Assembly (NCBI GenBank): GCA_964518475.1
Contig: CAZFGR010000001.1
Span: 1-64,000, forward strand
Direction: 5' to 3'
Length of the DNA stretch: 64,000 nt
Source of the DNA: an uncultured Nitrososphaerota archaeon
GTDB lineage: Archaea > Asgardarchaeota > Njordarchaeia > Njordarchaeales > Njordarchaeaceae
The notes below the pieces were generated by a model. The model searched no databases, was not told where the DNA came from, and saw nothing but the letters and a program-made list of their open reading frames with translations. This document shows, piece after piece, positions 49,834 to 54,401 of the stretch (positions within the stretch are counted from its first letter, which is position 1; every line of letters begins with the position of its first letter). The translations under genes and the position numbers were made by a program.

Positions 49834-50415
49834 CTAGTCACCCCCACCCGGTCCCTTAGCCAACATGTCAATAACTATTTCATCAATTAATTCGGGGGGA
49901 GGCATTAGAGCTTGCCCAAGTTCTGTCAAAATGATTTTTCCAGAATCAGCGTCGAGTCTAATGATTTTCTCTCTTTCGAGCTTCTTAAGAGCCTTTCGCA
50001 AGAGCTTATCTACTTTTTCTTCATCACCAATAAGGGCTAGCAAATCGTTTCTTAACACTGATAAGAAAATTTCTCCTCCCTTACTTCTAAAAAATATAAG
50101 CGCCAGGACACCCATGACATCCTTACTATAAGGCCGTAACTCCCCAAGTTTTATAGCTGGATCAATCACAGCTACGAAAATCTCGCTTCGCCTACTCCTC
50201 CTAACAACTCGTACCCTCTTAAGTTTTAGCCCAATCTTCTCGAACCTTCTCTCAAGCTCTTTTAAGCATTCTTCTAGAGGGATCCGTGATTTCTTCAAAA
50301 TCTTTATTACCTTGCTCACCGGTGCACCTATACTTCTATAACGACTGGCTAGGATATAGGCCGCCGCCTCCCGAATCGCTTGTTCAGCTTCCTCTGGTAA
50401 ATCTTTGCTACTCAT
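49834..50415 (-). CDS. Tandem winged-helix KITE protein (ScpB/Nse3-MAGE-like)
   Basis: LKELERRFEKIGLKL; MGVLALIFF..GEI; LKKLEREKII..IILTELG; position in the SMC operon. Confidence 0.62.
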   Translation of the reverse strand: MSSKDLPEEAEQAIREAAAYILASRYRSIGAPVSKVIKILKKSRIPLEECLKELERRFEKIGLKLKRVRVVRRSRRSEIFVAVIDPAIKLGELRPYSKDVMGVLALIFFRSKGGEIFLSVLRNDLLALIGDEEKVDKLLRKALKKLEREKIIRLDADSGKIILTELGQALMPPPELIDEIVIDMLAKGPGGGD

Positions 50416-51097
50416 ATCGTTTCACCTTAACGATGTTCTCCTTATAATCATACAATAAATTACCATTTTTCAACAGTCTTAACACTCCAATAACACGTAG
50501 TTTCACTTCTAGCTCCGTCTGCACTAACTCCCGTCTTCTTACTACTTCCTCTATTCTACACTTCCCCTCGTTTTTTATTATTTCATTAAGTAATGTCTCC
50601 TCCAACTTCTTCAGGAAAGAATTCTTTTTGAGTAGATGAGTTACTATCTCAGGCAATACTCTCTTTAACCTCTTCTTTAACGCTTTCCGAACCTTTTGTC
50701 CTCCAAGAATTAGTTGTTCAAGACCTTCTTTTAACGCTTCATATGAAAATCCTTGGATAGAAACAATATGTGTGATGGGGAATTCTTCGCGTTTAACGGC
50801 TTCTAGAACCATCTTTATACTTGATAAGGGTTTGTTGAGAGAAACTTTACTAGCTTGTAATAACTGTTCAACATAATTGTGTCTAGCTTTAACATAAAGA
50901 TTAAGCATTTGAAAGAAAGAGATGCCAAGATCCGTATCCCTAATCAGAATACGCCTAACATCAGCATTATCTGATATGTCTACGATATTATTGAGAATAA
51001 TCCGTGGAAGACCCTCAGCCCCTGTCTTAATGTATTCTTTCATTAACCTAATTGTTCTTACCACGATACCCCGATTCTTATCACGGCTACGACTCAT
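50408..51097 (-). CDS. Putative kleisin (ScpA/Nse4-like)
   Basis: Helical N-terminus and C-terminal WH-like segment (VIGVLRLLKNGNLLYD); directly downstream of the SMC gene. Confidence 0.5.
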   Translation of the reverse strand: MSRSRDKNRGIVVRTIRLMKEYIKTGAEGLPRIILNNIVDISDNADVRRILIRDTDLGISFFQMLNLYVKARHNYVEQLLQASKVSLNKPLSSIKMVLEAVKREEFPITHIVSIQGFSYEALKEGLEQLILGGQKVRKALKKRLKRVLPEIVTHLLKKNSFLKKLEETLLNEIIKNEGKCRIEEVVRRRELVQTELEVKLRVIGVLRLLKNGNLLYDYKENIVKVKRYE

Positions 51098-51134: not shown

Positions 51135-54100
51135 TCACTTTAATTTAGTAACTAGTTCCTTAATACTAATAGGTACAACTATAGACTTCTTTTTCTCCTC
51201 ATCATAATGCATATATACTATGTTATCGGCTGTTAAGAGAATTTCCTCTCTATGAGTAGTAGTTATGATTCCTTGAAAGTTCTTCAATGATCTTTTGATA
51301 ACGTACATAATTTCCTCTAAGCTCTTATCATCTAGGAAAACATCAAACTCGTCAAACATATAAAGGGGAGCAGGAGCTGTTAAGAAAAGAGCTATAATCA
51401 TTAACATTATAGCCGTCGTTTTTTCTCCAGAACTAAAACCCCCCTTATCAATCTCCACCGGTTTATCCCTATGAATGTCTATAGTGATTGAAAAATGGAG
51501 TTCTTCGGGTGAATCACCCTCCAACATTATTTCGCCGCGTGCCCCAATATATGATAAAAGCTCTTGGTAGTTCTCGTTAGCTTTCATAATCATTTTTCTT
51601 ACAGAATTTATGAGATCGAGCAGTTCACGAGAATACAATTTTTTAATTTCTTGCACTTCAATATCCAATTCCTTAATTCTTCTCTTGATTTCTTCAATTC
51701 TTTGGAAAAACTCTTCAACTTCAAAAGCTTCTGACTCCATTTTAAAAATTGCTTCCTTATAGCTCTTTACACCCTCTTCTAGCTCTAAAGCTAGTTTTTC
51801 AAGATCATTTATATTCATGGCTTCCACAAGATTATTGGCTGGCTCTACAATTTCTTTTTTAATGAAGTCCTCAGTAGTCTTGTCTCTTGGTATAACATCG
51901 AGTCTCCTCATAATATCAAAAATTACTACTATCTCTCTCCTTGTTTTAGATAATTCCTCATCGATATTCTTAAGCTCCCTTTGCAAAAACCGTATCTTGG
52001 CGGGTAACTCCTCTTTCTCACGTTCTAGGGCTTTTATCTGGGCAGAAATATCTGCCTCCTCTTCAATAAGTTTTCTGATTTGTTCTTCTAGGAAACTTCT
52101 TCTTTCCTCCAAACTTAGTACTTTCTGGTTACACTTCTCAATTTTATCCTGCATCTCATCTATTCTCTTGCTCCACGACTCTATAGCTTGTTGAATAGAT
52201 TTTATGCTTTCTGGCGCCTGCTTCAGCCGCTTCTTGATCATCTGTATTCTAGATATAATAGCCTCTATTTGCCTAATCTCTTCCTCCAACGAAAATTTTT
52301 CCTTTTCTAAACTAATAGCTTCTTTAGGCAATCTATTTCGAAGGAAATCTATTTCTTGTCGCAATCTCCTTATCTCAGAATCTAGTGAATCTACCTGCGA
52401 TAAAATCTCGTCTTCCATTTTAAGAAAATCTTCTAGAGAGAAACCGAGAATATCCACTAATATGCTTTCGGACTCCTCTCCGCCAATTCTCACATTATAA
52501 AAGACAGCGCCCGTGACTCTATCTCTCCTCCTCTCAACCACTGAACCATCAATAGTTACGGCTTTACTAAGACCCAGTCTATTAAGGATTAATGCAGCAG
52601 CCTTCTCGTCAAGTACTATGGGAACATCCCAATTCCTGGATTCTATAACGGCCAAGACGGGTTCAGGAGCTATAATAGCGTCGCAGACCCAGCCAGCTAT
52701 TAGATACTCGTTGCCACCTAATACTTCCTTCGCCCTCTTTTTCAACAATTTTCGCTTCTTTTTTGCCTCGTTCACGATTCGTCTAGCGATGTCTAGAGCA
52801 CTCTCACTTATTAATTCTCCAGAATCAGACCTACTTATAGTGATAATATCTATTCTCCCGCCTCCTCGATTTTTCCTCACAATTTCAACCATCTTGTAAT
52901 AAGCTTGAGGCGATGTTACGATAAATGCGGATAATAACCTTTTACCGAGGACATTCTCTATAGCCACCGCGTAATCCCTAAAAATATTTCCAGCAACTCT
53001 CGGTCTTATCTCCAGCAATACCGGACCATAGATCTCGCTTCTCAAAAGTTCTCTAGGAATAGTATTAAATACCCTCTCCAGAGACCCAGAATGATCGAGT
53101 TTTCTCAGCAAATTTCTTAGCTGTGTGCGCAACCCATCCAATTCCTTTATCAAAACTTTTTTCTCCACTTGTAATCTTTCGATATCTTCCCTTATCCCTT
53201 TTATCTTACGGAAAATCTCACTCTCGCTCAGTTTAGCCTCAATCCATTTTATTCTCTCAATTCTTTCAGAAATCATTCTCCTTAATTCCTCAGGATCGTC
53301 GCTGCCCCATTTCTTTCGGATTTCTTCAAGCTCTTGAAGCTCTTTCTCATACTTTTCTCTAACCTCTACAAGCTTTGCTTGATACTCCTTAACCTTCTCC
53401 TCAGCCTTTTTTAGTTCATACTCATACCCCACCTTCTCGCCCATGGTTATTCTCTCAATCTCCGATCTCACGTGCTCATACTCCTTATTTAGCTCATCTC
53501 TTCTCTTCCTAACTTTATCTAACGACTCATGCAATGCGACAATTTTTTCCTCAATCTCCTTGATCCTCCTCTGAAATTCCTCAAGTTCCGTTTCTAATCG
53601 ACTCTTCGCACTCACTAAATACGCCAATTTGACTGCGTAATATCTCGTGAGTTTTTCCCTCGGCAATAATGGGTGGAGTACCTTTTTACTCCTCTTAGTT
53701 ACTTCCTCCTCCAACTCCCTTAGTTCCTTAACTAATTCCTTGCGTACTTTTTCTTTTTCCAGAATCTCATTTTTTACTCTCTCTAATCGATCACGTAGCT
53801 CTTTTAAACCTAAAACACTTAGAAGAAGATCCACTCTCTCCCTAGTTGATAGAGATACCCACTCATTCACCCTCTCCTGCGGCAAGAAGAAGAGCGTGTT
53901 ACGAGGAGAAATATTCACCTTAACCAGCATCTTAATAACATCATTCTTCGTCACTTTTTTCCCATTAATCCTAAAAAACGATTTCCCATCCCTATAAATC
54001 ACGCGCTCCAGAACAACATCGGTATTCTCAGGGAGAAAATCAACCAGTCTAATCCTAGGTCTACCCGGAATATCTACAGTATTACTCATTCTCAACCTAA

Positions 54101-54401
54101 TAATAGCCATACTAGCTCCATACCTGACAAACTTTCCAAGATTCTCTAACCGCTCACGCCCAAGCCCACCAAAGGCTAGTCTAATAGCTTCCAGAACAGC
54201 TGTTTTACCACTCCCCCTCCTCCCAACAATTACGTTTATTCCCTTAGTAAACACTATACGCGTATTCTCGTGCGACATAAAGTTTATCAGTTCCAACTCT
54301 TTAAGCACAATCAGCACCCATGAAGGCTCAATACATTCACAGACTATGAAAACTCTCCCGATAAAATCACTATATACCATGGGAAAAATACACCAATTCA
54401 T
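51135..54401 (-). CDS. SMC5/6-like (ClsN-type) SMC ATPase
   Basis: LELINFMSH, Walker A GRRGSGKT, Q-loop FFLPQERV, long coiled coils, hinge YGPVLLEI, FSSGEK, Walker B PLYMFDEFDVFLD; true start probably a GTG near 54308-54317. Confidence 0.88.
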   Translation of the reverse strand: MNWCIFPMVYSDFIGRVFIVCECIEPSWVLIVLKELELINFMSHENTRIVFTKGINVIVGRRGSGKTAVLEAIRLAFGGLGRERLENLGKFVRYGASMAIIRLRMSNTVDIPGRPRIRLVDFLPENTDVVLERVIYRDGKSFFRINGKKVTKNDVIKMLVKVNISPRNTLFFLPQERVNEWVSLSTRERVDLLLSVLGLKELRDRLERVKNEILEKEKVRKELVKELRELEEEVTKRSKKVLHPLLPREKLTRYYAVKLAYLVSAKSRLETELEEFQRRIKEIEEKIVALHESLDKVRKRRDELNKEYEHVRSEIERITMGEKVGYEYELKKAEEKVKEYQAKLVEVREKYEKELQELEEIRKKWGSDDPEELRRMISERIERIKWIEAKLSESEIFRKIKGIREDIERLQVEKKVLIKELDGLRTQLRNLLRKLDHSGSLERVFNTIPRELLRSEIYGPVLLEIRPRVAGNIFRDYAVAIENVLGKRLLSAFIVTSPQAYYKMVEIVRKNRGGGRIDIITISRSDSGELISESALDIARRIVNEAKKKRKLLKKRAKEVLGGNEYLIAGWVCDAIIAPEPVLAVIESRNWDVPIVLDEKAAALILNRLGLSKAVTIDGSVVERRRDRVTGAVFYNVRIGGEESESILVDILGFSLEDFLKMEDEILSQVDSLDSEIRRLRQEIDFLRNRLPKEAISLEKEKFSLEEEIRQIEAIISRIQMIKKRLKQAPESIKSIQQAIESWSKRIDEMQDKIEKCNQKVLSLEERRSFLEEQIRKLIEEEADISAQIKALEREKEELPAKIRFLQRELKNIDEELSKTRREIVVIFDIMRRLDVIPRDKTTEDFIKKEIVEPANNLVEAMNINDLEKLALELEEGVKSYKEAIFKMESEAFEVEEFFQRIEEIKRRIKELDIEVQEIKKLYSRELLDLINSVRKMIMKANENYQELLSYIGARGEIMLEGDSPEELHFSITIDIHRDKPVEIDKGGFSSGEKTTAIMLMIIALFLTAPAPLYMFDEFDVFLDDKSLEEIMYVIKRSLKNFQGIITTTHREEILLTADNIVYMHYDEEKKKSIVVPISIKELVTKLK

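Follow-up and report, generated by a model that had tools for sequence, protein, structure and literature searches.

Archaeal SMC proteins of an 'SMC5/6-related' type were defined by Yoshinaga & Inagaki (2021; PMC8665677), one of them from a 'Korarchaeota' metagenome, and van Hooff, Raas, Tromer & Eme (bioRxiv 10.1101/2024.01.07.573240) described operons of TACK and Asgard archaea that encode, in this order, an SMC, a kleisin related to Nse4 and a kite similar to Nse1/3. The basic notion of SMC5/6-related holocomplexes in archaea is already in print, and the view expressed in a first-pass annotation of the locus described here, that the partner subunits of such SMCs are poorly defined, is out of date. 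The locus lies on a contig of an uncultured archaeon of the class Njordarchaeia (GenBank assembly GCA_964518475.1, contig CAZFGR010000001.1, positions 1 to 64,000; this whole stretch of 64,000 nucleotides (nt) is referred to as the window). Three of its genes most probably encode the subunits of a single SMC-kleisin-KITE complex, which would be of the non-canonical archaeal, 'SMC5/6-related' type, and this complex, hereafter the Njord complex, is a divergent member of an already described kind rather than a new kind of system.

The Njord operon resembles the published TACK and Asgard operons in the order of its genes for an SMC, a short kleisin and a tandem-winged-helix kite other than ScpB, in an SMC that falls outside the clade of Smc and SMC1-4, and in a kite that is related to theirs by profile. 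It differs from them in the sequence isolation of its proteins, in an FSSGEK signature motif, and in running into priL and a gene for a ThiF-type E1; furthermore, the published operons usually coexist with canonical Smc-ScpAB, whereas the Njord operon appears to stand alone. The name 'Njord' is absent from the text and supplementary tables of van Hooff et al. that were checked, and we found no paper that pairs Njordarchaeales with SMC. What we found to be previously undescribed is the apparent position of this complex as the sole SMC complex of its class, the FSSGEK signature throughout that class, and the class-wide link to priL and the ThiF-type E1.

The operon occupies positions 49834-54401 on the minus strand, as three tightly packed, co-directional open reading frames (ORFs): the SMC ATPase gene (P0001, 51135..54401; 1088 amino acids (aa) as called, recognised by Pfam SMC_N), the kleisin-like gene (P0002, 50408..51097; 229 aa, recognised by predicted structure, profiles and operon position) and the KITE gene (P0003, 49834..50415; 193 aa, a predicted tandem winged helix). 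A spacer of 37 nt separates the SMC gene from the 229-aa gene, and the latter overlaps the 193-aa gene by 8 nt, the KITE start lying over the kleisin stop. The first-pass annotation had proposed just such an operon of SMC, kleisin-like and KITE genes, and the ORFs lie exactly where it had placed them. The source genome is a 2.33-Mb assembly that is 91% complete, and the named database relatives of its SMC belong to Candidatus Njordarchaeales or Njordarchaeia, of the Asgard lineage. Of the 14 class genomes, 12 have the gene trio, with the same order every time, and in a thirteenth the SMC is found on contig fragments, so that the SMC is kept in 13/14. Recurrence on this scale argues that the trio is not a chance arrangement. 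A scan of genome contigs for related loci returned only two distant bacterial Smc loci.

The domain make-up of the SMC can be observed directly in its sequence. Pfam SMC_N covers residues 33-1070 of the 1088-aa protein (E 3.6e-34), which has the features of an SMC sensu stricto: a split ABC-type head with five motifs, a hinge between arms, and a branching position with SMCs. The N-terminal half of the head (residues 33-200; 53802..54305) contains the Walker A motif GRRGSGKT (54201-54224; G60 and G63-K66 invariant in the class) and a Q-loop with PQE inside NTLFFLPQERV (53868-53900; P174-Q175-E176 invariant). The C-terminal half (residues 926-1088; 51138..51626) contains the signature FSSGEK (51420-51437; F989-K994 invariant), the Walker B/D-loop DEFDVFLD (51330-51353; D1017-D1020 and D1024 invariant) and the H-loop TTTHR, whose invariant H1050 is encoded at 51252-51254. 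Invariance was judged from an alignment of ten class members, in which Walker A, the PQE Q-loop, FSSGEK, DEFD..LD and TTTHR are all unvarying; because every one of the ATPase motifs is invariant, the SMC ATPase looks active. Between the head halves lies a hinge (approximately residues 456-665; 52407..53036) that barely reaches the cut-off of Pfam SMC_hinge (PF06470; 22.7 bits, cut-off 22.5) and that hhalign matches, at probabilities of 94-98%, to those of four further types of archaeal SMC. The regions on either side of it (53037-53801 and 51627-52406, also with approximate boundaries) match coiled-coil families, e.g. tropomyosin, as coiled-coil arms would. Because relatives begin at MLKELEL, translation probably starts at the GTG at 54308 (residue 32 of the called protein, giving ~1057 aa) rather than at the ATG at 54401; the N-terminal extension is, though, also present in the closest relative.

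To place this SMC, 100 Asgard genomes were sampled and 40 SMC loci fetched, nearly all of which have the order SMC, protein of ~220-260 aa, protein of ~170-215 aa. The partners of the ~1200-aa Asgard SMCs match Pfam ScpA and ScpB, and those of the ~1125-, ~996- and ~835-aa SMC types (hereafter types 1125, 996 and 835) have no Pfam match. One Asgard family has a canonical-type operon with a 1482-aa SMC and a 338-aa kleisin (locus L061, 6667-7680, plus strand), the N-terminus of which gives HeH/LEM-, Ish1- and Rho_N-like (SAP-type) matches at E ~4e-4, ahead of a ScpA C-terminal region. A tree inferred by maximum likelihood from the two halves of the head (alignment of 59 rows and 413 columns; LG+C20 PMSF) was rooted with two Asgard Rad50 sequences and represented eukaryotic SMC5/6 by two plant SMC6 sequences, without SMC5. 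In this tree the SMCs, including that of Njordarchaeia, split from Rad50 at 100/99 support, and the canonical clade of bacterial, archaeal and SMC1-4 proteins is recovered at 100/99 with the Njord SMC outside it. The Njord SMC groups with type 835 at 97/95, and type 1125 groups with the canonical proteins at 91/91. A position of the Njord SMC within the archaeal and eukaryotic canonical SMCs was rejected when put to the approximately unbiased (AU) test (p = 5e-43, delta lnL 70.9), and the canonical Smc equivalog model TIGR02169 was not reached (170 bits vs a cut-off of 729). The Njord SMC is neither Rad50 nor canonical Smc; the phylogeny that the first-pass annotation had proposed as a check groups it with the SMCs and apart from both. 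It is also isolated in sequence, the scores of its homologues dropping from 449 to 84 bits after 19 Njord-type proteins.

The kinship with SMC5/6 itself is less firmly settled. The AU test did not reject a clade that joins SMC6 to types 996 and 835 and the Njord SMC (p = 0.42), and in the unrooted tree the split that unites SMC6 with the three non-canonical Asgard types has an SH-aLRT (approximate likelihood-ratio) value of 88. The relation to SMC5/6 claimed in the first-pass annotation therefore stands in so far as the protein lies outside Rad50 and canonical Smc; a specific sister relation to eukaryotic SMC5/6 is not demonstrated. That annotation had pointed to a mixture of Smc5 and Smc6 motifs, and the motifs quoted (NTLFFLPQERV, NFMSH, DEFDVFLD, the SSGE of FSSGEK, and GRRGSGKT) are all present, but most of them are weak as markers. 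NFMSH was rejected as a marker of SMC6, since an Asgard Rad50 carries NFLSH. The Q-loop segment was likewise rejected as a marker of SMC5, its best PDB matches being yeast Smc3 and Pyrococcus Smc and its SMC5 match having E 0.0018. The Njord SMC, like Rad50, lacks a two-residue insert, and NF(M/L)SH and the missing insert, being common to Rad50, are best regarded as ancestral states. Only DEFDVF(L/M)D is restricted: within the compared set, it was found in SMC6 and in non-canonical Asgard types alone, and plant SMC6, the Njord SMC and types 835 and 996 are the only sequences with DEF in Walker B. Ahead of the H-loop, the Njord SMC, SMC6 and type 835 have an apparent one-residue insert in common. 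The FSSGEK signature sets the class apart, as all other SMC and Rad50 rows of the aligned set have SGG at this position.

The 193-aa protein is a KITE by its predicted fold, a feature that we count among the demonstrated ones on the basis of this predicted structure. An AlphaFold2 model made from the class alignment is a tandem winged helix with a mean predicted local distance difference test value (pLDDT) of 79, and the 35 best hits of a Foldseek search of the PDB with it belong without exception to KITE or MAGE proteins (Nse1, Nse3/MAGE, ScpB, MukE, JetB; E 2.6e-4 to 7e-3). The best match by VIA-align is 7dg2_C, a chain of an Nse1-Nse3-Nse4 structure (Z 10.9 over 172 residues, root-mean-square deviation (rmsd) 5.2), followed by JetB (Z 9.3-9.4, within 1.6 Z of it). 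Profile comparison places the Njord kite with the non-ScpB Asgard kites: hhalign probabilities were 92.7% to the kite of type 835, 83.9% to that of type 996, 41.6% to that of type 1125 and 0.8% to ScpB, with 94.3% to the merged non-ScpB Asgard kites and 0.3% for a reversed control. In softer measures it leans to Nse1/Nse3/MAGE. In the ESM Atlas, the top cluster by features was one of eukaryotic MAGE proteins (0.85, with 171 shared features); by structure, unnamed Thermoproteota, Bathyarchaeota and Promethearchaeota clusters came first and then Nse1 (TM 0.58). Both results are leads and not proof. The resemblance to Nse3/MAGE noted in the first-pass annotation is thus upheld as to a non-ScpB kite with this lean, and finds no Pfam MAGE match behind it. 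None of 11 kite-position proteins of the class matches Pfam ScpB (PF04079) even at E <= 1, and Pfam MAGE and Nse1 gave no match to them either; there is a weak Pfam MksE match (E 0.025). Over 101 Asgard genomes Pfam MAGE gave no match and Pfam Nse4_C gave two sub-threshold ones only, both inside open frames of >1,100 aa, and neither Nse1 nor Nse3 was recovered from PDB sequences with the profiles of the other non-ScpB Asgard kites. The kite is encoded by one gene and has no zinc-binding (RING) domain. An exhaustive hmmsearch with its profile recovered 18 cluster representatives, one tight family all below 1e-36.

The partner encoded between the SMC and the KITE, the 229-aa protein, we read as the kleisin, from its architecture, size, operon position and profile, with only moderate support from homology. 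Its gene holds the middle position, an arrangement common to all the other Asgard SMC operons that were examined. The AlphaFold model (pLDDT 75) is helical at residues 2-88, of low confidence at ~89-150 and a winged helix at 150-225, which would correspond to the N-terminal helical domain (~1-88), flexible middle (~89-150) and C-terminal winged helix (~150-226) of a kleisin. This last domain superimposes on ScpA-C (5h66_C; Z 8.9 over 63 aa, rmsd 2.0), as it does on numerous further winged helices; because it matches so many domains of this kind, the kleisin fold alone is unspecific. Foldseek gave no significant whole-chain match, with Nse4, Scc1-C, Brn1 and ScpA-C among the weak ones, and the Atlas feature search with the same model gave generic winged-helix clusters only, below 0.8. 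By profile, hhalign against the merged Asgard kleisins reached 72.7% (E 3e-5) over 113 co-linear C-terminal columns, with controls at 0.1-2.9% (reversed, 0.1%). No Pfam or PDB sequence match to known kleisins was obtained for the 229-aa protein, and none of 12 kleisin-position proteins of the class matches Pfam ScpA (PF02616) even at E <= 1. Searches of Pfam, NCBIfam and PDB sequences with the 229-aa and 193-aa proteins or with alignments of their class members gave nothing meaningful, and a word-indexed search of 5.8 billion proteins with the two returned close relatives only.

A complex prediction that combined the N-terminal (33-260) and C-terminal (860-1088) head segments of the SMC with the 229-aa protein gave a score of 0.20, the mark being 0.32, which we weigh neither for nor against binding; the three proteins are presumed to bind each other. 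As there is a single SMC gene, a homodimer is expected. In such a complex the SMC would homodimerise via its hinge, and the two heads would be engaged by ATP, held by Walker A together with the Q-loop and, from the opposite head, by the FSSGEK signature; E1018 of Walker B and H1050 of the H-loop would then hydrolyse it. The kleisin would span the two heads, holding one SMC at the neck with its N-terminal helices and the other at the cap with its C-terminal winged helix, and a dimer of the KITE would sit on the kleisin middle. The resulting ring would entrap or extrude DNA.

Set beside eukaryotic SMC5/6, the Njord complex has the same SMC-kleisin-KITE core, and not a HAWK one, a Walker B/D-loop (DEFDVFLD) close to the DEFDVFMD of plant SMC6, a similar SMC length of ~1060-1090 aa and a kite whose best whole-chain match is a chain of Nse1-Nse3-Nse4. 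It differs in having one SMC per genome of the class, for which a homodimer is expected, and one kite without RING, and no Nse2, Nse5 or Nse6 was identified. With canonical Smc-ScpA-ScpB it shares the three-subunit logic, the order of the genes, a hinge-bearing SMC that is expected to form a homodimer, and a head of similar fold, and its best PDB sequence matches include Pyrococcus Smc; however, the proteins do not reach TIGR02169 or the ScpA and ScpB models of Pfam, and in profile comparison the kite is not related to ScpB. The closest relative in the tree, type 835 (loci L037-L039, family f19), has in common with the Njord SMC the motif NFMS(H/Y), the Walker A motif G(R)NG.GKT and DEF in Walker B, but has much shorter arms (832-835 aa in total length), the standard SGGEK signature, a canonical Smc-ScpAB in the same genomes and no priL beside it.

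The Njord complex appears to be the sole SMC complex of its class. The source genome contains one long SMC only, and no Pfam ScpA or ScpB match was found in it. Searches of the 14 class genomes with a canonical Asgard Smc and with the model of ScpB found canonical pieces in two metagenome-assembled genomes (MAGs) only. In one of these, G007, the pieces lie on contigs of ~3 kb (L090, G007:C93, and L091, G007:C128) with a GC content of 46-48%, vs 38% for the rest, and with genes 25-35% identical to those of the source genome; based on this deviant composition and low identity, the contigs are likely bin contamination. In the other, a contig (L092, G005:C145) carries Mre11, the N-terminus of Rad50 and then an 84-aa ScpB-like ORF at its end, and is possibly a chimera. 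Because no canonical Smc-ScpAB has been found to belong to the class, the Njord complex probably carries out general chromosome organisation and segregation. Elsewhere among the Asgard archaea, family f7 (loci L050, L069, L070) yielded with the same query only the ~996-aa non-canonical SMC and may be a second lineage that lacks canonical Smc; in two of its genomes a 1031-aa protein with a hydrophobic N-terminal stretch is encoded directly upstream of the SMC.

Several results weigh against an SMC5/6-related complex. At the base of the rooted tree SMC6 (the two plant sequences), type 996 and the group of Njord with type 835 form a polytomy; a clade of canonical SMCs, Njord and type 835 is only marginally disfavoured (AU p = 0.06); and the comparison with SMC6 depends on two plant sequences, with no SMC5 and with long branches. 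Searched as a profile against PDB chains, the Njord SMC scores higher with yeast SMC3 (142 bits) and Pyrococcus Smc (139) than with SMC6 (109) or SMC5 (84). No Pfam or PDB sequence match ties the small proteins to Nse4, Nse1, Nse3 or MAGE, the winged helices of cullin, MCM and Rpa2 score as well as ScpA-C against the kleisin C-terminus, marking it as a generic winged helix, and two class MAGs do contain canonical Smc/ScpB fragments. The basal polytomy, together with the NF(M/L)SH and missing insert shared with Rad50 and a Q-loop nearest to Smc3, would fit an independent third SMC lineage, restricted to Heimdall and Njord archaea and including type 835, whose likeness to SMC6 is ancestral or a long-branch effect. 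We consider such a lineage a serious but unlikely explanation, given that DEFDVF(L/M)D is found in the set only with SMC6 and non-canonical types, that the apparent insert before the H-loop is shared with SMC6 and type 835, that the joint clade with SMC6 is not rejected and that the nearest named clusters of the KITE are MAGE and Nse1. In addition, no Asgard family sampled has more than a single non-canonical type next to the canonical one, which is what we would expect of diverged orthologues.

That the operon encodes a fast-evolving canonical Smc-ScpAB, displaced in the tree by rate acceleration in a hyperthermophile-like lineage, is very improbable. Such an origin would account for its being the only SMC of the genome, for the PDB matches to Pyrococcus Smc and SMC3 and for the alignment of the C-terminal half of the kleisin with a merged profile that includes ScpA, but it is at odds with the strong AU rejection, with a TIGR02169 score far under the cut-off and with a KITE whose profile is related to the non-ScpB kites and not to ScpB. 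The sister of the Njord SMC, type 835, is found in genomes that also encode canonical Smc-ScpAB, which marks it as a true paralogue. A role in defence, as an SMC-based system like Wadjet/MksBEF or Lamassu, suggested by the weak MksE match of the KITE, its VIA-align scores with JetB and matches of the SMC to the PADLOC models LmuB and JetC, is scarcely credible. These PADLOC matches are generic, scoring 95 bits, below the 170 bits of TIGR02169; the same search found nothing for the kleisin-like protein and one marginal, non-Wadjet match for the kite (TmtA, E 0.0075). The Njord genes also depart from the Wadjet/MksBEF plan, as the order is SMC-kleisin-kite, with the SMC first, instead of jetABC, the kleisin is only 229 aa, and no nuclease or JetD-like gene is present. 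Nor does the distribution of the operon resemble that of a defence system: it is single-copy, present in nearly every genome of the class, and located among housekeeping genes (ribosomal proteins, priL, rpoB). An SMC-kleisin-KITE complex of the SMC5/6-related type remains our preferred reading.

Downstream of the operon, priL (P0004, 48451..49833, minus strand) encodes the DNA primase large subunit (460 aa; Pfam DNA_primase_lrg, E 8.5e-42) and abuts the KITE gene, being found 3′ of it in every Njord genome checked. It lies beside none of the other Asgard SMC operon types examined. We regard priL as a conserved neighbour; a part for it in the complex is not shown. The string beyond the kite (window 47378-49833, minus strand) consists of priL, the ThiF-type E1 gene (PF00899, E 1e-39) and a gene for a 133-aa coiled-coil protein, and was found in 6/6 Njord genomes from two families (loci L084-L089). 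PriL ends in a tail rich in Lys, Arg, Gly and Ser, and its gene overlaps the called start of the E1 by 65 nt. Upstream, and divergent from the SMC gene, is a probable intron-bearing tRNA of 122 nt (54587-54708, plus strand; Rfam RF00005, 63 bits), which ARAGORN did not call; a 76-aa ORF on the opposite strand over it (54551-54781) is probably spurious. Further upstream, a 303-aa gene (54938-55849, minus strand) has no Pfam match and is kept at the same position, with 40-52% identity, in four genomes of the genus.

The SMC5/6 complex is of uncertain origin, an open question in eukaryogenesis, and Njordarchaeales belong to the Asgard archaea, of all known prokaryotes the closest relatives of eukaryotes. 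The conservation of one string of genes, smc-kleisin-kite-priL-E1(ThiF)-coiled-coil, in both families of the class that were examined raises the idea that the complex replaced Smc-ScpAB as the only SMC machine and is coupled to DNA priming and to UFM1-like protein tagging. We hold this to be unlikely and offer it as a speculation; if it were true, the coupling would be an archaeal forerunner of the links that eukaryotic SMC5/6 has with replication forks and with ubiquitin-like conjugation. That priL and a gene for a Ubl-activating enzyme are linked to the operon across the class is itself a testable lead, and a compact, homodimeric system of this kind could be used for biochemistry. By apparently having kept only a non-canonical complex, the Njordarchaeia provide a natural case for what such a complex can do alone.

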